Origin: a virus | Reading direction: 5' to 3' (one strand) | IMG/VR virus record: IMGVR_UViG_3300030105_001626 | Coordinates: 1 to 64,000 of that record | Length of the DNA stretch: 64,000 nt | Shown: positions 2,770 to 51,523 of the stretch, one piece after another | Numbering within the stretch: position 1 is the stretch's first letter | Layout: each line of letters starts with the position of its first letter | Notes under the pieces: generated by a model | Databases searched by the model: none | What the model was told of the DNA's origin: nothing | What the model saw: only the letters and a program-made list of their open reading frames with translations | Made by a program: the position numbers and the translations under genes

Positions 2770-3005
2770 TCTGATTCTGGCTCTATTGGTGTAACTGATG
2801 ATATAAATTCATCAACCTGTTCATCAATCGTTTCAGTTCTATTAAGATTCACTATACCACCTACAACCTTATCTGTAAAACTTGGTTTATCTGCAATGTC
2901 TTTTTCGTCTAATGACCATATTACAGATAGCATTATAACAAAGGCCACTAATAATAGAGGCAATCTTTGTTTCTTGATGTGTTTAATAATCTGGCGCTTA
3001 TTCAT
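2766..3005 (-). CDS. membrane-anchored hypothetical protein
   Basis: Basic N-terminus followed by a TM helix. Confidence 0.6.
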   Translation of the reverse strand: MNKRQIIKHIKKQRLPLLLVAFVIMLSVIWSLDEKDIADKPSFTDKVVGGIVNLNRTETIDEQVDEFISSVTPIEPESE

Positions 3006-3144
3006 TGATAAGAAGTGATACTTGATTAGGTTGGGGTGTGTAGGGTACGACCAGGCTTATTTCTGATGCCTGTGTATCTGCATGATAATGCTCTTCTATT
3101 GTTTCATAGAAAAACATAAATGTGTAAAGTATAACATAGTCCAT
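2998..3144 (-). CDS. hypothetical protein (48 aa)
   Basis: Manual translation MDYVILYTFMFFYETIEEHY...; GGAG RBS. Confidence 0.45.
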   Translation of the reverse strand: MDYVILYTFMFFYETIEEHYHADTQASEISLVVPYTPQPNQVSLLINE

Positions 3145-3173
3145 AATAACTCCATAATATAAATTAAAATTGC

Positions 3174-3323
3174 TTATTCAGATGAAAAAGCTTCAATCAT
3201 TCTTCTGTTTTTTTCTTTAGTTTCTTTTGTTGCTAACATCTCAGCTTCTTGTTGTTGCTGTTCAAGATTTTGTTGTTGGTTTTCAGCCGCAGCACGGTCA
3301 TCTTGTTGTTGTGTATCAGTCAT
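3174..3323 (-). CDS. Gln-rich hypothetical protein (49 aa)
   Basis: Manual translation MTDTQQQDDRAAAENQQQNLEQQQQEAEM...; AAGGA RBS. Confidence 0.5.
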   Translation of the reverse strand: MTDTQQQDDRAAAENQQQNLEQQQQEAEMLATKETKEKNRRMIEAFSSE

Positions 3324-3386
3324 TTTACCATTCCTTTTGGGATTAGATTAGAAATAAATGCCTTTTGAGCAATTCTATTTATGCCT

Positions 3387-3569
3387 TTATTCCGTCCCAG
3401 GTATTCTTTGTTTAGTCTGAGTCAAATGATATCGATATCTTTTCAAATAACTTAACGCTCTTTTTGGTTCGTGTATTGGATTTGGTAAAGGACCAAACAA
3501 TCTGTCCATGTCTTCTACTATCTCTTGAGCTTCTTCATCAGGTATGTGGTCTTCACCTAAAACTATCAA
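3387..3569 (-). CDS. hypothetical protein
   Basis: ORF track; FG.LPNP.HEPK motif seen in T4-like small proteins. Confidence 0.6.
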   Translation of the reverse strand: MIVLGEDHIPDEEAQEIVEDMDRLFGPLPNPIHEPKRALSYLKRYRYHLTQTKQRIPGTE

Positions 3570-3802
3570 ATGAAAGTTCTCACTACTCCATATCCATATA
3601 ATACCGCCATCATTACATTTATTATGATAACACTTGGTTCACGCCAGAGACTTCCGATGTAAATCCAACCGATACCTGCTACAGTACCTAACCAGACATT
3701 TAGTGGGAACATTTCTAATGCAGATGCTAATGCACAACCGCAGGCAGCTATCGTAGATAACCACTTAACCCAAAATGCAAATGTTGATTGATTTGATATC
3801 AT
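3566..3802 (-). CDS. small membrane protein
   Basis: KW.ST...FPLN...G..GW...G..WRE.S...IN pattern; three TM segments. Confidence 0.65.
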   Translation of the reverse strand: MISNQSTFAFWVKWLSTIAACGCALASALEMFPLNVWLGTVAGIGWIYIGSLWREPSVIIINVMMAVLYGYGVVRTFI

Positions 3803-3820
3803 ATTACAAGGAGTATAACA

Positions 3821-4075
3821 CTATTTTGAGTGTTTTTGAGGCGAACTTTGGAGGCCGTAGGTGGATGGGTCTTGATGTAGAACCCAATTGACATAATCAA
3901 CAGCTAAATCTTCATCTTTAAAGTATTTTGTGATTACTTGCCCTGACAATATAGAGCCAACGAAGATAAGTATATTGCCTTTATAGTTAGAAAACTTAAT
4001 CCACCAATAATGTTTTACTATTGGCTTATATGTTCTCAATGAGATTTCAATATCTCTCTTGATATCTTCATTCAT
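3821..4075 (-). CDS. hypothetical protein
   Basis: ORF track. Confidence 0.55.
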   Translation of the reverse strand: MNEDIKRDIEISLRTYKPIVKHYWWIKFSNYKGNILIFVGSILSGQVITKYFKDEDLAVDYVNWVLHQDPSTYGLQSSPQKHSK

Positions 4076-4111
4076 TATAACACTATATCTAGTATGAGTT
4101 GGGCAAACATG

Positions 4112-4582
4112 CTACTTTCTTGGTGAACTTCGGCTATATCCATTGGATTTAGGTGATGAGTTATTATAAGTAATGGTGTCCGGTTTTGATATAAGATTAT
4201 CTTTCCTTATTCGACAAGTGACCCAATCATTATAGTATTCGTGTGTAACTAGAGCATCTCGTGTAAATATCTCGTACGTCTCGAAATAAGATAGTTCTGA
4301 ACGAGTCTTACATAGATGTAGAATTTCTCTCGTAAAATGTTTCTTACCAGCCTTCTGTACATCTTCTTTGATTACTTTGTTTGAACCCCAATATTCTTCC
4401 CAATCAGACTTCACTCTAATTTTTTTCTTCTTACCTTTTACTTGTTTTCTAGAAGCCTTGGTAAAAAACTTCTTACCTACATACTTTCTATTATTCTGTA
4501 AGTTGGTGATTAGGTAAACTATCCCAAAATACTCACCAACATTTTCTTCAGTAAATTCTTTACCTCTAAATGTCCAATTCAA
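4112..4582 (-). CDS. GIY-YIG family endonuclease
   Basis: GIVYLITN...RKYVGKK, YWGS, FTREIL, YYN motifs. Confidence 0.8.
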   Translation of the reverse strand: MNWTFRGKEFTEENVGEYFGIVYLITNLQNNRKYVGKKFFTKASRKQVKGKKKKIRVKSDWEEYWGSNKVIKEDVQKAGKKHFTREILHLCKTRSELSYFETYEIFTRDALVTHEYYNDWVTCRIRKDNLISKPDTITYNNSSPKSNGYSRSSPRK

Positions 4583-30686: not shown

Positions 30687-31805
30687 TTATCGGATGATGT
30701 CAATCTCTTTTTCGCCTGTCCACACTTCTATATCATTTCTTAATCTATTATCTTTCTTTAGATTCTCATATCGATTACTAGCTTTCTTCTTCCACCATTC
30801 AATGATATTTTCTAGATTATGTTTTTCATAATTTTCTTTATCTTTGATTATCTTATCAGTTTTGCCTGTAACGATATCTATGAAGTTCTTGATACCATAA
30901 TTTGAGACATAGTATCTTTTCTTTTCAGTTAGATTCAATGCGTTCTTAATAGTATTCTCGAAGCCTTCATATTCTGGTGTGCCTTTAAGTGCAACTTTCG
31001 TTAATGACATTATCTTATTTGATATCTTCAATTTACGAGATGTAGCATCAGCTGGCACCAAAGGTTCGCCAATGGCAGCTTCAACATATTTCTTTAAATC
31101 TTCATATATTGGTCCATGCATCATGGGAAGAAAAGCAGAATCAGTCAAACCTTTGAATCTTATTAATGGTTTCATACCATCATACTGTGAGGACGCCTTG
31201 GAACTGCCATACAAACTTGTTGTTTCAAACATACAGGTGTTCATTTTATATTTGGCGTTAAGCCTTTCACGAACCCAATGCGAACAACATATAGCGGCCA
31301 ATAATTTGCCACCAAGATAATTAAAACCGAATGGTTGCGATGGCACAATCACAAAACCCATCATAGTGGTTTTATTAAATGCTGAAGCTCCTTCTGCAGT
31401 TTGCGAGAAGACCGACTCCAACATCTGGTTTCTTGGTTTCATATTAATTACTGGAGAACCAAGGCGTATAAACCCGACCCATTTCTGAGTATTTTTTTCT
31501 AATACAGCCAACCTTAAACATCTACCAGGAATACTGGTCATATTAGAGTGAGACGAAATCATATTGAGATAGATGTCCCATTTGTCTTGTGGTAATTCCA
31601 CAATTTCTAAATCCATATCTCTTGGATGAATACTAAAATCTGTAAATAAATCTTCTTCTGGTCCCATGCCTGGTAAAACAAAAGGCCTATCAGCCAAAGA
31701 GTTTAGTTTCTGGTCACGAATGTAGTCATCAATTCTTTCAAATCGGTCAAAGTAATCTGAATAAACTTTTGCACAATGAACTGCCTGTTCTTTGGTTAAT
31801 CTCAT
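30687..31805 (-). CDS. DUF4338/DruA-like protein (paralog 1)
   Basis: PGR.LRL.V......WVGFI.LGSP, IVPSQPFGFNYLGGKLLA, ETTSLYG, SQYDG motifs. Confidence 0.75.
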   Translation of the reverse strand: MRLTKEQAVHCAKVYSDYFDRFERIDDYIRDQKLNSLADRPFVLPGMGPEEDLFTDFSIHPRDMDLEIVELPQDKWDIYLNMISSHSNMTSIPGRCLRLAVLEKNTQKWVGFIRLGSPVINMKPRNQMLESVFSQTAEGASAFNKTTMMGFVIVPSQPFGFNYLGGKLLAAICCSHWVRERLNAKYKMNTCMFETTSLYGSSKASSQYDGMKPLIRFKGLTDSAFLPMMHGPIYEDLKKYVEAAIGEPLVPADATSRKLKISNKIMSLTKVALKGTPEYEGFENTIKNALNLTEKKRYYVSNYGIKNFIDIVTGKTDKIIKDKENYEKHNLENIIEWWKKKASNRYENLKKDNRLRNDIEVWTGEKEIDIIR

Positions 31806-47524: not shown

Positions 47525-49945
47525 TTAAGCAGCAATTTTATCAATAAATTTACTCACCAGAACTCTGTTAATAACCTTTGATTTATTCACTTTCATAAAT
47601 GCATTTTTTAATTTGTTAGCAGTTACTTTTCCTGATACTTCAACTTCTTTGTCAGCAGCATTTAAGTCTTTGCCTCCAAGAATCATGTAGAAATCATCAT
47701 AGTTTGGTTTTTGAGAAACCAATAATTTTTCTTTTCTAAATATTTTAACAATATTCTTTTGATATTCCCACTTCTCGTATCCTTTATCACTAACAGTTTG
47801 ACCATCTTCATTTACATATTGTCTGTAAATAGCATCTTTAACTTCTCTTGAATTTGGAGCAACAATATAGAAACCAATAATTTTAGAACCGGTTAACTTT
47901 TTAAACCAATCCATAGTATTAAGAAATACTTGATTTGTATTATAATGTCCTTGTTTAATTCTAGATGTAAATCTTATTGAATCATCTTTAATCACTATGT
48001 TAGTTTCTTGAGTGTCCATTCTTTTAGTATGTTCATGTGGAAAATGTTCTTCTTTAGGCATATATTTATTTTTTAAGTTATGGTCATTTGGATATTTTTG
48101 ATATTCATTCAGTCCAAAAGCAGTGTAGTCATGACAATAGTCAGCATCGCCATCATGTATAATAATTAAATTAACAATGTCAAGACCTCTAGAAGCTTTG
48201 AACTCGTTAGTATATTTACCAAGAGCAACTAATGCTTGAAGCAGTGGAGTATTTGTTAATCTTTCACTCTTTGGAGTATAAGGTCTATTCACTGAATCAT
48301 ATCTAAGATTGTGGTCATATGATTTTGCTAACAGTAACATGTTTTGAACTGCTTTAGTATACTCAGCTTTATTCATATTTGAATTAAGATATTCTCTTAA
48401 GACAACATTTTCTAATTTTAATGTACCAACTTTAGTTTCAAAAGATGAAACATCTTCAAGTCCATCTTTATAAGTTTTACTGTCAAATTCTATATCTCTA
48501 TCCATATACCAAGTTGTACTTGTATCTGAAAATGTTTGAACTGTAAATGGAATATTTACTTTTCTACAAAAACTAGAAAGTATTAATACTTGCTCAATAG
48601 CACCTTGAATATTATCCCACATTGAACCAGAATAATCTAATAACAGAATCAGTCCGTGAGATTTACCTTTAGGTATAATCATCATCTTTTTGAAAATGTC
48701 ATCATTGAATTTATAAGAAGCAAGTTTGTTAATATCTAAATCACCAGTACTTGCAGTTCTTCTCTTGCCATAAACTTTGGCAGCTTTTTTCATTTCGAAT
48801 TCTTTAGCAAGTAAAGCTACAAACTTATCATTTTTCTTTTTAAAGTCATTATAGATTTCATCTTTGTAACCTTTCTTAAAATATCCTGCAACTTCTTGGT
48901 TTTGAAAATCGTTAGATAATAATTCTTGAACTTTTTTAGCAGGAGTGATAATATTTTTCATGATAGGTTTAGGAAAGTCAAGGTAAATAAACTCTTTACT
49001 TTCTTCGTCAACTAATGAGTTCTCATTATTTCTATAATTTTCATCAGTTTCACATCTTGGTCCATCATCAACTTCTGATTCTTCGTAACCTGAATCTTTA
49101 AATCTATTTAATCCTGTAATTTCGCCATTTTCATCTGATTCTTCTGAATCATCATCATCATCGCAATTTGTTTTATTTTCATTTTCGTCTTCACCTTCTT
49201 CTGAATCATCATCTGAATTATTTTCAGAATTATTGCCGTCTTTACCGTCATCATCTTGAGAATCATCATTTTCATATTCATCATAACCTGAATCTTCATC
49301 ATCAGGGTCTTCAGAAAAGTATTGCTCTTCTTGTGACATCATCTCGTCCTGATAATCTAATTGCTCTTCAGTTGAATATGCATATATATCATTCGTAACA
49401 TTAACAACATCTGACCATGATTCTGTAGTCTTAACTCTTTCTAATAATTTAGTTTCTTCTTCATTAAAATCAAGAGCCATAGTATATTGTGATTTAGTAT
49501 AAAGATTTAGTCTATCGATAAAAGCTAATTTGTTAGCGTCTCTACCTTGAAGACCAAAGAAATCTTTTTCTCTTAAATCAGCATATGCTGTTTTGAATGA
49601 TTTTTTTAGACCTGGATATTTTCTTTGTACACGCTTCTCGATTCTAGCATCTTCAATTACATTTAAAAAGTTTTTATAATTCTTACCTTTATTATTAATT
49701 GTAACTGCATCATGCCATCCTTCAGCAGGTGTATACAGAGCATGGCCAACTTCATGTCCACAAAGTAAATCATAAGTTGTACCTATCATATCAGTCCAGA
49801 TTGGAAGATATAATATTCTGTTTTTAGGGTCGAACTTTGCAGTAGAAATCTTCTGATGTTCGATTGTTAGATTTTCATTAGCCATCAGTTTTGCTAACTG
49901 AGACTTCTGTTCTTGTAATAAATTGTCTTCTTTTTTCACTATCAT
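47525..49945 (-). CDS. HExxH metallopeptidase-like domain, acidic linker and vWA domain (CobT-like partner of the AAA ATPase)
   Basis: GHEVGHAL, NVIEDARIE, MIDAS LLDYSGSM, TPL, HDGD; start moved downstream of the promoter. Confidence 0.85.
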   Translation of the reverse strand: MIVKKEDNLLQEQKSQLAKLMANENLTIEHQKISTAKFDPKNRILYLPIWTDMIGTTYDLLCGHEVGHALYTPAEGWHDAVTINNKGKNYKNFLNVIEDARIEKRVQRKYPGLKKSFKTAYADLREKDFFGLQGRDANKLAFIDRLNLYTKSQYTMALDFNEEETKLLERVKTTESWSDVVNVTNDIYAYSTEEQLDYQDEMMSQEEQYFSEDPDDEDSGYDEYENDDSQDDDGKDGNNSENNSDDDSEEGEDENENKTNCDDDDDSEESDENGEITGLNRFKDSGYEESEVDDGPRCETDENYRNNENSLVDEESKEFIYLDFPKPIMKNIITPAKKVQELLSNDFQNQEVAGYFKKGYKDEIYNDFKKKNDKFVALLAKEFEMKKAAKVYGKRRTASTGDLDINKLASYKFNDDIFKKMMIIPKGKSHGLILLLDYSGSMWDNIQGAIEQVLILSSFCRKVNIPFTVQTFSDTSTTWYMDRDIEFDSKTYKDGLEDVSSFETKVGTLKLENVVLREYLNSNMNKAEYTKAVQNMLLLAKSYDHNLRYDSVNRPYTPKSERLTNTPLLQALVALGKYTNEFKASRGLDIVNLIIIHDGDADYCHDYTAFGLNEYQKYPNDHNLKNKYMPKEEHFPHEHTKRMDTQETNIVIKDDSIRFTSRIKQGHYNTNQVFLNTMDWFKKLTGSKIIGFYIVAPNSREVKDAIYRQYVNEDGQTVSDKGYEKWEYQKNIVKIFRKEKLLVSQKPNYDDFYMILGGKDLNAADKEVEVSGKVTANKLKNAFMKVNKSKVINRVLVSKFIDKIAA

Positions 49946-49952
49946 GTAATCC

Positions 49953-49992
49953 ATTATACAGATTTCCATGCAAAAGTCAAGCACTTTCGAGC
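49953..49992 (-). promoter_or_regulatory. sigma70-type early promoter
   Basis: TTGACT-N16-TATAAT; ATG 7 nt after the -10 box. Confidence 0.75.
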
Positions 49993-50043
49993 TTTATTTT
50001 AGCAATTTAATGATAAGTTTTACTTATTAAAGAACTCAATAAG

Positions 50044-50112
50044 TGGAGCGGAGATTAGGATTCGCACCTAAAGAATTGACTGGAAGCCATTTCTGTTCTA
50101 CTACTTCTCCGC
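50044..50112 (-). tRNA. atypical D-armless tRNA-Gly(TCC)-like RNA (downstream copy)
   Basis: Acceptor GCGGAGA/TCTCCGC followed by TCCA; T-arm TTAGG-TGCGAAT-CCTAA; loop CTTCCAG on an extended stem; 69 nt. Confidence 0.75.
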
Positions 50113-50118
50113 AAAAAG

Positions 50119-50187
50119 TGGAGCGGTGTGTCAGATTCGCACTGACTGATTAAACGGGAAGAATAATCTGTTCTACTAACCCACCGC
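50119..50187 (-). tRNA. atypical D-armless tRNA-Gly(TCC)-like RNA (upstream copy)
   Basis: Acceptor GCGGTG/CACCGC followed by TCCA; T-arm GTCAG-TGCGAAT-CTGAC; CTTCCCG loop within a GATTA/TAATC stem; 69 nt. Confidence 0.72.
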
Positions 50188-50199
50188 AATTAAGTAACC

Positions 50200-50227
50200 A
50201 TTATACATGATTGACATCACAAGTCAA
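50200..50227 (-). promoter_or_regulatory. sigma70-type promoter for the tRNA-like pair
   Basis: TTGACT-N16-TATAAT, ending 12 nt before the first RNA. Confidence 0.75.
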
Positions 50228-50242
50228 GCATTATATCCATTA

Positions 50243-51523
50243 TTACCGACCAACTTGGTCTAGATAATAATCTTTAGTTTCTTCCCACGATAACACCGTT
50301 AAGTTATCATAGAATAATGTTTCTGTAGAAACTCGGTCTGATTCTTTTAAATTTCTAATTCTCTTTGTTGCATATCTTTCTTTCCATAAAGTTACCAGAG
50401 CTTCAGTCGAAGTATCAAATGATTTTACTAATTTGTCTTCAGTAATATCACCTCTTAAGAACTCGGCTGAATTATTGTATAAAGGAGAAAAGTATATACC
50501 TCTGGCATGAGCTGATTGTGTTAATGCTTTATCCATTTTCATTTGTGAATATGCAAATGATAGTGACCTATTCTTATGGTCTCTTTTGTGTGGTTGCCCA
50601 CTTGGTTTCTTTGCAACATACCATTCAAAGTATTTTCTGGTATGATTTTTCTTTATCCAATCATTAATTTTATTTCTAGTCACTCTTCTTGGTTCAAACT
50701 TAACTGAACCTGCAGTGAATCCCATTTTCTTCCAGTGTTTAAGTCTATCGTATTGTGATAGTCCATGAAGTTTCGCTTTACCATATAAGGATGTAGTTGT
50801 AACGCCTATTAGCGTGTCACCATACAATTCTTTCCATAGTTTCTGTATCTTATCATCTAAACATAATAATGCTAATAACTTACCACCTGTGTAGTTGTAA
50901 CCTAAAGGTTGTAAAGGAACAATCGTAGAACCAATCGCTGTATGATTAATCATTGAACCTTGTGTTTTAAGTTCTCTACTCCATCCAATAAAATTATCTC
51001 TAGGCGTTAAGTCTAGAAAGTCTGAAGAAATACAAATAACACCAAGATATTTTTTAGTTGGTTTATCTCTGACAATGAAGTTAAGATTACGACCAATATT
51101 AGAATTGTTTTTCATTGTAGATGAGAATGTTCTAATTACATTCCATAGTTCTGGCAAGTCTTCTTGTTTGTTTGCATATATGAGTTCAGGTTCTATATTC
51201 ATAAACTCATCTAAGTCTTGTGGATTCCAAACATTATTTTTAACTTCTTCAATAGCTATTCTTTGTTTATCGTTGGCTAGAACTTTCTTCTCGCCTTCCC
51301 ATAAATCATTAACCATAGTGAATGGATATTTTTCTTGTACTTCACACCACTTTTGATACAATGTATATTCTTTTACGTCCATCTTTGAAACAAATTCAAG
51401 GTCTGTAATCGTCTCTTGTTTAATTTGTTCAAAGTCAGGGTCATCCATATCTTCTACAGGATTAGCCTCTGACCATTTTTCCCACTGAACTTCTACATCA
51501 TCTTTTGTATAATCAATTGCCAT
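50243..51523 (-). CDS. DUF4338/DruA-like protein (paralog 2)
   Basis: GRNLNFIVRD...YLGVICISS, PRD.FIGW, IVPLQPLGYNYTGGKLLA, TTTSLYG, SQYDRL motifs. Confidence 0.8.
   Translation of the reverse strand: MAIDYTKDDVEVQWEKWSEANPVEDMDDPDFEQIKQETITDLEFVSKMDVKEYTLYQKWCEVQEKYPFTMVNDLWEGEKKVLANDKQRIAIEEVKNNVWNPQDLDEFMNIEPELIYANKQEDLPELWNVIRTFSSTMKNNSNIGRNLNFIVRDKPTKKYLGVICISSDFLDLTPRDNFIGWSRELKTQGSMINHTAIGSTIVPLQPLGYNYTGGKLLALLCLDDKIQKLWKELYGDTLIGVTTTSLYGKAKLHGLSQYDRLKHWKKMGFTAGSVKFEPRRVTRNKINDWIKKNHTRKYFEWYVAKKPSGQPHKRDHKNRSLSFAYSQMKMDKALTQSAHARGIYFSPLYNNSAEFLRGDITEDKLVKSFDTSTEALVTLWKERYATKRIRNLKESDRVSTETLFYDNLTVLSWEETKDYYLDQVGR

Follow-up and report, generated by a model that had tools for sequence, protein, structure and literature searches.

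Short tRNAGly-like RNAs accompany a DruA-family GNAT gene in a marine T4-like phage

A DruA-family gene followed by two short tRNA-like elements

We analysed a 64,000-nt stretch of viral DNA (positions 1 to 64,000 of IMG/VR record IMGVR_UViG_3300030105_001626; hereafter the window), which carries on its minus strand a gene of the DruA/DUF4338 family followed by two short tRNA-like elements, A and B. The source is an uncultured, marine, T4-like phage related to the pelagimyophages, and the whole record is 77.6 kb long and about 44% complete. The DruA-like gene encodes a 426-aa protein and has a DNA identity of 68–72% to Pelagibacter phages Mosig and HTVC008M. A first-pass annotation of the sequence had placed the tRNA-like pair 55 nt after the stop codon of this gene, on the same strand, and the coordinates agree in every detail: element A starts at position 50187, exactly 55 nt past the stop. 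In minus-strand order, gp47-like and gp46-like recombination genes are followed by a peptide deformylase gene, the 426-aa open reading frame (ORF), an intergenic stretch of 198 nt, a second promoter, and the cobT-like and cobS-like genes. The features are as follows.

52195-51524, minus strand: peptide deformylase gene, directly upstream of the DruA-like ORF
50243-51523, minus strand: DruA/DUF4338-family GNAT gene, 426 aa (Pfam PF14236, PADLOC DruA, phrog_19197)
50245-50243, minus strand: stop codon of the DruA-like gene
50200-50227, minus strand: putative sigma70-type promoter TTGACT-16-TATAAT, positioned to drive both RNAs (consensus match only, at 11 of 12 positions)
50119-50187, minus strand: tRNAGly-like RNA A, 69 nt (from its sequence, end-anchored layout, covariance model R1 and covariation in relatives)
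50044-50112, minus strand: tRNAGly-like RNA B, 69 nt (from its sequence, end-anchored layout and covariance model R1)
49953-49980, minus strand: second putative promoter of the same build (TTGACT-16-TATAAT), for the cobT-like gene, bounding the end of the RNA unit
49984-47525, minus strand: cobT-like ORF
47420-46179, minus strand: cobS-like gene
30687-31805, minus strand: second, divergent DruA-family paralogue, 372 aa (PF14236, E = 2.8e-10; phrog_19197, E = 2.4e-137)

Elements A and B, each 69 nt long, share the 3' end CCGC-U-CCA, and in the whole window there are two occurrences of the motif GTGCGAATC-N7-CCGCTCCA, against a chance expectation of 0.00. Element A has the acceptor stem GCGGUGG/ACACCGC, a 12-nt linker containing UAGUAGAACA, an 8-bp stem with two U-U mismatches closed by the loop UUCCC, and a T arm GUCAG-UGCGAAU-CUGAC followed by U73 and CCA. 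Element B is built in the same way, from a 7-bp acceptor stem (GCGGAGA/UCUCCGC), a 12-nt linker, an 8-bp stem GAAAUGGC/GUCAAUUC with the loop UUCCA (GUCCA in its close relatives), and a T arm UUAGG-UGCGAAU-CCUAA, again followed by U73 and CCA. Covariance model R1 (CM R1) scores element A at 77.9 bits (E = 8.8e-20) and element B at 75.9 bits. The RNAs are missed by standard tRNA finders: ARAGORN called 0 tRNA genes at elements A and B, and Rfam gave no tRNA match (RF00005) for them, either at the gathering score or at E ≤ 10. The matches that Rfam does return at E ≤ 10 over 49900-50300 (TUG1, SAM-II and others) are chance matches. Folded as single sequences, the elements are modestly better than shuffles (z about −2); taken singly they are weak candidates, and it is the comparative data that are decisive for the structure.

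By pattern scans of IMG/VR we gathered more than 116 loci, from which 38 distinct short elements were used for alignment. Unguided RNAalifold on these 38 relatives recovered two hairpins, one of 8 bp with a 5-nt loop and one, the T arm, of 5 bp with a 7-nt loop, with compensatory change at 10 of the 13 predicted pairs. A count of pairs found 97.2% of cells paired and 119 cells changed on both sides, compared with 34 ± 5 in shuffles (none of 500 shuffles reached this value), and the paired fraction fell to 23–47% when the pairing register was slid. The T arm is paired in 100% of cells and four of its five pairs covary. In an end-anchored alignment the first four acceptor pairs are invariant (GCGG/CCGC) and the fifth covaries among UA, AU, GC and CG. 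The architecture of the family, from its 5' end, is a 7-bp acceptor stem, a single-stranded linker of 9–13 nt containing UAGAAC, an 8-bp stem with the loop N(U/C)CCN, one unpaired nucleotide, a T arm with the loop UGCGAAU, U73 and an encoded CCA. The features of a canonical tRNA that are kept are therefore the 7-bp acceptor stem, the 5-bp T arm with its 7-nt loop, the discriminator base and the 3' CCA, and the D stem is absent.

The linker matches the 3' half of the D loop plus D stem of canonical tRNAGly from phages and from Patescibacteria (..AGUAGUAGAAC..), so the elements look like tRNAGly minus the 5' strand of the D stem. Among genome contigs, tRNAGly(GCC) genes of Patescibacteria (the candidate phyla radiation; L135, L145, L147, L150 and other loci) combine a UGC T loop with a D loop that lacks GG (AGUAGUAGAAC), and they bear a close resemblance to the phage tRNAGly lineage that seems to have given rise to the short elements. 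Our scan of genome contigs returned these Patescibacteria genes and GC-rich chance matches, none of them beside Mom or DruA, and a BLASTN search of the elements against 50,697 cultured-phage records returned no match. Five phage records carry UGC-loop tRNAs of canonical length, four of which ARAGORN calls Gly; none of the five has a Mom gene, and the two that were also searched for DruA have none.

Experimentally defined glycine identity elements in Escherichia coli and Thermus thermophilus are G1-C72, C2-G71, U73, C35 and C36 (PMC9976931), and U73 is nearly confined to Gly and Cys among bacterial tRNAs (PMC6097841). Judged from its sequence, each of the two RNAs has the bacterial tRNAGly set (G1-C72, C2-G71, G3-C70, U73, C35 and C36), and GCGG/CCGC, U73 and both loop Cs are invariant in all 38 aligned sequences. 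The middle loop has 5 nt (4 nt in 63-nt variants), most family members have a G at the would-be U33, and a G stands in for U55 in the T loop. Since the D stem, the 7-nt anticodon loop with U33 (in most members) and the T-loop U55 have been lost, the RNAs look unfit for decoding. The label of Gly-tRNA mimics given to them in the first-pass annotation is borne out by a covarying tRNA-like structure, an invariant glycine identity set and the missing decoding features.

Two further observations touch on this point. The T loop of elements A and B, UGCGAAU, has UGC for UUC, as in the non-proteogenic tRNAGly of staphylococci, which serve the Fem transferases, have TGC or TGT for TTC in the T loop and bind EF-Tu poorly (PMC7826273). 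At another phage locus (L022, 6438-6586) a short element is followed after 5 nt by a canonical tRNAGly(UCC) with the T loop TTCGATT, both behind one promoter at the head of a tRNA cluster, and this juxtaposition suggests a division of labour.

The putative RNA promoter (50227-50200) begins 15 nt past the stop codon of the DruA-like gene. It and the promoter for the cobT-like gene are near-identical (GCTTGACT-N16-TATAATGG), stand 247 nt apart and flank the RNA pair. A contig from an RNA library (metatranscriptome run X16) spans 49927-50181, which covers both RNAs and the start of the cobT-like gene, and an Illumina adapter follows directly after 50181, 6 nt inside element A. The adapter is at most a weak hint of a transcript end, and we do not count RNA-library contigs as evidence of expression, because there is one contig per run and DNA carry-over is possible. 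This phage is a common one: at least 97% of the sampled words of the stretch are present in each of 14 marine DNA runs (11 studies), all 14 being flagged as possible sources of this DNA.

No RNA element adjoins the second DruA paralogue (30687-31805), and CM R1 finds only elements A and B in the whole 77.6-kb record. This paralogue abuts an upstream ORF of 465 aa. Homologues of its type are widespread in cultured Synechococcus T4-like phages, and one such record (PQ898602.1) is annotated 'methylcarbamoylase mom'.

Linkage of the RNA family to DruA and Mom genes

We sampled 80 loci with orthologues of the 426-aa protein (DruA1) without reference to the RNA. Protein identity ranged from 63 to 100%, and 79 of the loci were evaluable. 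A GCGG..CCGC-U-CCA element begins 23–142 nt past the stop codon, on the same strand, at 59 of the 79 (counting within 400 nt); at six further loci it lies 550–770 nt downstream, so that the RNA is near the gene, within about 800 nt, in 65 of 79. The first-pass annotation had looked to co-occurrence of DUF4338 and the RNA motif across T4-like phages, and this is what we see. The RNA sequence diverges strongly from locus to locus, for example in the T loops (which include UGCGAAU, UGCAAAU, UGUAAGU and UUUAACU) and the middle loops (which include UUCCA, GUCCA, UCCCC and CCCC), and the acceptor end and the CC of the middle loop are always kept. A TTGAC(A/T)...TATAAT box precedes the RNA in most of the orthologous loci. 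The pairing of gene and RNA is conserved but not obligatory, and all cases fall within one phage clade.

Just after the DruA gene of Mosig and HTVC008M (in Mosig, after an inserted MazG gene) lies GUAGAACA..GUGCGA followed by hairpins (L001:3439-3573 and L002:3673-3808), which looks like a decayed tRNAGly-like relic. Bacterial DUF4338 genes (L409-L438, Gammaproteobacteria) are often present in several near-identical copies per genome, which suggests a subfamily borne by mobile elements.

Outside the DruA phage clade, the RNA family lies beside Mom genes, and this is the strongest functional clue that we have. Mom transfers glycine from Gly-tRNAGly to adenine N6 in double-stranded DNA and probably reads the acceptor end only (PMC13219725); the first-pass annotation had named glycyl-tRNAGly as its donor, correctly. 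An unrelated phage with DUF1376 and RusA-type genes (L011) has an element in which UAGUAGAACAG and GGUGCGAAUCC of the window recur; a Mom-family ORF (PF25680, E = 8.7e-33) overlaps this element with its first 29 codons. Elements with a bulged T stem (8-nt spacing), which form a sister subclass of the family, occur at 11 viral loci, and in 10 of the 11 they overlap a Mom-family ORF (PF25680) at its 5' or 3' end. The eleventh (L018), a small contig, has two tandem Mom paralogues (2896-4385) 2.2 kb downstream of a pair of tRNAGly-type elements (573-647).

An unbiased sample gave a similar picture. Among 80 Mom loci from IMG/VR (L329-L408, 264 kb in all), ARAGORN found a tRNA at the 3' end of Mom in 38, and all 38 calls were either Gly(UCC/ACC) or short-loop '???'; there was no other ARAGORN tRNA anywhere in the 264 kb. 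We relied on ARAGORN here, a strict acceptor/T-arm scan having caught only 8 of the 80 loci, and further elements missed by ARAGORN are visible by eye. The tRNAs lie on either strand, and many of them are on the opposite strand at 12–33 nt past the stop codon. Our literature searches found neither a link between Mom and tRNA genes nor any of these RNAs, and a term search of the main text of PMC13219725 found no mention of neighbouring tRNA genes.

At six Mom loci (L011:5337-5412, L025:3449-3519, L030:5342-5412, L061:2638-2708, L099:1906-1976 and L033:2976-3051) the element lies inside the stop-to-stop ORF of Mom. The Mom frame is the only open frame of such elements and reads ..GGANPT(S/R/H/Q)PL.. 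at the N- or C-terminus of the protein. With the element inside the ORF, tRNA maturation might cut the mom mRNA, or the tail might be translated.

Predicted structure of the DruA-like protein

The protein matches PF14236 over residues 108-358 (80.3 bits against a cut-off of 27, E = 1.8e-22), PADLOC DruA (E = 2.4e-17) and phrog_19197, a family annotated as of unknown function. The motifs by which it had been recognised (GRNLNFIVRD, YLGVICI, GGKLLALL and TTTSLYG..SQYD) are all present in the translation. An HMM (hidden Markov model) search of PDB sequences found no relative of it, and the sole lead in the ESM Atlas, to a phage GNAT-like cluster, stayed below threshold (score 0.87). DUF4338 was earlier called a GNAT domain by the Aravind group (PMC10853773).

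An AlphaFold2 model built with 63 homologues has a pLDDT (predicted local distance difference test score) of 95.1. In this model, the protein is predicted to comprise an N-terminal helical/beta domain (1-104; pLDDT 53.5 when folded alone), a GNAT core (approximately 105-372), whose last strand is preceded by a basic helical insertion (276-340, net charge +11), and a helical part at the C-terminus. We compared the model with 48,161 representative PDB chains. The top match is Mu Mom (8bv8_B; Z = 9.6, root mean square deviation (rmsd) 3.7 Å over 164 residues, model range 105-359), 23 chains have Z ≥ 8, and the top 50 are without exception GNAT folds, aligned over residues 105-370 or so; Foldseek also returns GNATs. 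A comparison with Mom and other GNATs had been suggested in the first-pass annotation, and a GNAT fold is what it yields.

In a library of viral structures, Mom of a Salmonella phage ranks ninth, after true family members that include giant-virus proteins. Mom-type proteins turn up repeatedly in the list. Proteins named 'endonuclease-like' or 'homing endonuclease' recur among these matches; they are probably Mom–nuclease fusions, because a Mom-family protein matches endonuclease-annotated PHROGs and such fusions have been described (PMC7824862). The giant-virus homologues in BFVD come from Faunusvirus, Yasminevirus and Dasosvirus (E = 1e-10 to 1e-20), and some are parts of proteins longer than 1100 aa.

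A possible glycyl-transfer module, its alternatives and its relation to known systems

We propose that gene and RNAs form a two-part aminoacyl-transfer module, in which host glycyl-tRNA synthetase (GlyRS) charges private, non-decoding glycine donors that are consumed by the DruA-family transferase. We favour this reading tentatively, as one that may well be right but falls a little short of probable. In such a module, the RNAs would be transcribed from their own early-type promoter, loaded with glycine by host GlyRS and largely ignored by EF-Tu and the ribosome, so that the neighbouring GNAT could draw on a pool of activated glycine of its own. The GNAT would then move the glycyl group to a target, most probably phage DNA by analogy with Mom, an acceptor that is less certain than the module itself. 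The RNAs appear to keep what GlyRS and an enzyme reading the acceptor end would need (G1-C72, C2-G71, G3-C70, U73, CCA and a CC-containing loop). If DNA is the acceptor, the modification might protect it from restriction, as the first-pass annotation supposed. A broader version of the idea is that D-stem-less, non-decoding glycine-acceptor RNAs, encoded by marine T4-like phages and by many phages with Mom, are private GNAT donors and that DruA/DUF4338 proteins, including DruA of type I Druantia, are Gly-tRNA-dependent modifiers of nucleic acids; DruA would then be the self-marking module of Druantia (in the place of the methylase in type II systems). We consider this version doubtful.

The first-pass interpretation is partly supported: the RNA mimics, the glycine donor of Mom, the GNAT fold and the co-occurrence stood. 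The protein is not a member of the Mom family. Its description of the fold as Mom-like holds insofar as the fold is that of a GNAT and Mu Mom is the nominal top match. Pfam gives no Mom match (PF25680) at E ≤ 0.01, the hhalign comparison of the DruA and Mom profiles has a probability of 1.7%, that is, no profile similarity, and acetyl-CoA GNATs (Z = 8–9.1) are statistical ties with the Mom match. 'Mom-like' is a suggestive rather than an established term for the modelled protein.

The last two of these results weigh against our proposal, as do several others. On the RNA side, the UGC T loop is also present in the seemingly ordinary tRNAGly(GCC) of Patescibacteria, so this loop alone is not diagnostic of a non-ribosomal role, and charging would presuppose that GlyRS recognises a loop of 4–5 nt. 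On the side of linkage, the element is absent from 14 of the 79 orthologue loci. HTVC008M and Mosig keep the gene without the RNA, and CM R1 finds nothing in either. In one subgroup an element with its own promoter heads a tRNA cluster 7 kb from the gene (all three long contigs of this subgroup still carry DruA genes). All of the linkage falls within a single clade and so could reflect inherited synteny. No tRNA gene lies within 1.5 kb of the bacterial DUF4338 genes at 26 loci from published genomes of Gammaproteobacteria (this count leaves out four loci from the unpublished genomes G150, G048 and G317). On the side of the protein, the N-terminal domain (1-104) is acidic (net charge −14), which is not what a DNA-binding domain looks like. 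A partial Q-x-x-G motif (Q205-P-L-G208-Y-N, then an invariant G213-G214-K215) precedes helix 3, partially matching Q/R-x-x-G-x-G/A, and acyl-CoA is a possible donor.

These points bear on four alternatives. The best placed, which we nevertheless think unlikely, is that tRNA-borne glycine is used on an acceptor other than DNA, for example a protein (at its N-terminus or a lysine), a precursor of the cell wall or of a lipid, or a small molecule (compare Fem, L/F-transferase, MprF and PacB). Most known aminoacyl-tRNA-dependent GNATs act on non-DNA acceptors (PMC13219725), FemA matches the model over 191 aligned residues (Z = 8.1, rmsd 5.6), and the acidity of the N-terminal domain fits with this, no DNA-binding domain having been identified in the protein. 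What speaks for DNA is that the nominal best fold match is Mom, that the gene lies among replication and recombination genes, with the paralogue coupled to a replicative helicase gene, and that the basic insertion precedes the last strand at about the place where Mom has its DNA-binding insertion (a placement taken from alignment ranges).

The protein might instead be an ordinary acyl-CoA-dependent acetyltransferase, with the charged RNAs or something unrelated as its substrate, and the adjacency mere inherited gene order; we think this no likelier. It would account for acetyl-CoA GNATs lying within 1 Z unit of Mom, for the partial Q-x-x-G and invariant GGK at the start of helix 3, and for a linkage that is restricted to one clade, where HTVC008M and Mosig have lost the RNA and kept the gene. 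It sits less well with an adjacency that persists at 63–100% protein identity despite turnover of the RNA sequence and of the intergenic DNA, and the parallel linkage of Mom and tRNAGly lowers the odds of chance synteny.

More improbable is a decoy or sponge, in which acceptor-end mimicry absorbs tRNAGly-directed defences (TacT-like GNAT toxins that acetylate Gly-tRNAGly) or titrates GlyRS or DTD, the DruA-like gene being a mere neighbour. TacT reads U73 plus G71, a combination unique to tRNAGly (PMC9976931), and both are invariant in the RNA family, which has its own early-type promoter and in some relatives lies far from the gene. A decoy does not account for the ties of one RNA family to two unrelated families of GNATs, one of them a proven consumer of Gly-tRNAGly, and decoys for anticodon nucleases would need a normal anticodon loop. 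Finally, it is very improbable that the RNAs are working but odd phage tRNAGly that supplement glycine decoding: phages of this group do encode tRNAs, ARAGORN calls phage tRNAGly of canonical length that have the same UGC T loop, Patescibacteria appear to use such a tRNAGly(GCC), and the loop of element B could open to a normal 7-nt anticodon loop (C-U-UCC-A-G), but the D stem is missing, most relatives have G at the would-be U33, loops go down to 4 nt, a canonical tRNAGly(UCC) stands beside the short form in L022, and the known bacterial tRNAs are all cloverleaves (PMC11551756).

Both tRNA-dependent transfer by a GNAT (Mom) and dedicated non-proteogenic tRNAGly (the staphylococcal Fem system) were already known, and the staphylococci are the only organisms from which dedicated tRNAs of the non-proteogenic kind have been reported to date (PMC7826273). 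What is new is a phage-encoded form of tRNAGly that lacks the D stem and appears not to decode, its pairing with the uncharacterised DruA family, and its pairing with Mom genes. If the glycyl-transfer module is real, these RNAs would be the first natural tRNA derivatives without a D stem in the bacterial world (organelles apart), and viruses would be building private pools of activated amino acids that bypass translation, both in abundant ocean phages and beside Mom genes. DruA/DUF4338 is widespread: a known defence system has it, and so do marine T4-like phages and giant viruses. Glycyl transfer, if true, would be its first testable mechanism. Should DNA be the target, marine viromes may commonly contain a new base modification, which would affect restriction evasion and sequencing.

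Among known systems, type I Druantia shares the Pfam (PF14236/DUF4338) and PADLOC family of its DruA with the phage protein. Unlike Druantia, the locus has no druB-E nearby, its neighbours being peptide deformylase, gp46/47-like and cobS/cobT-like genes, and it lacks the operon with druB, druC, druD and the DruE helicase that marks a type I Druantia defence system. We know of no function for DruA. Mitochondrial tRNAs that lack the D arm, such as metazoan mt-tRNASer(GCU), decode on mitoribosomes with 7-nt anticodon loops. They resemble the phage RNAs in lacking the D stem, in their extended anticodon stem and in keeping the acceptor and the T arm, whereas the phage RNAs have loops of 4–5 nt and are encoded by a bacterial virus. 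The stable RNAs C and D of T4 (species 1 and 2) are small and tRNA-like, have no known function and are encoded close to the tRNA genes of that phage; their likeness to elements A and B is one of description and serves as a lead only.

Two systems are closer. The staphylococcal Fem proteins (FmhB, FemA and FemB) are GNAT-fold glycyl transferases with dedicated tRNAGly(UCC) paralogues that are charged by GlyRS, have a UGC T loop and evade EF-Tu (PMC7826273). Their tRNAs are full cloverleaves, chromosomal and restricted to staphylococci, whereas the RNAs described here lack the D stem, are encoded by phages and are paired with a DruA-family enzyme. The Fem proteins, which act on lipid II, combine two GNAT lobes with a coiled coil, whereas the model of the DruA-like protein has a single GNAT core. 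Mu Mom (PF25680) differs from the DruA-like protein in sequence and profile, is half as long, lacks the added N- and C-terminal domains, and relies on the tRNAGly isoacceptors of its host. Like the DruA-like protein as modelled, it is a phage-encoded GNAT fold with an extra basic helical insertion late in the fold, and at the ends of Mom-family genes in other phages lie tRNAGly-like RNAs of the same kind.

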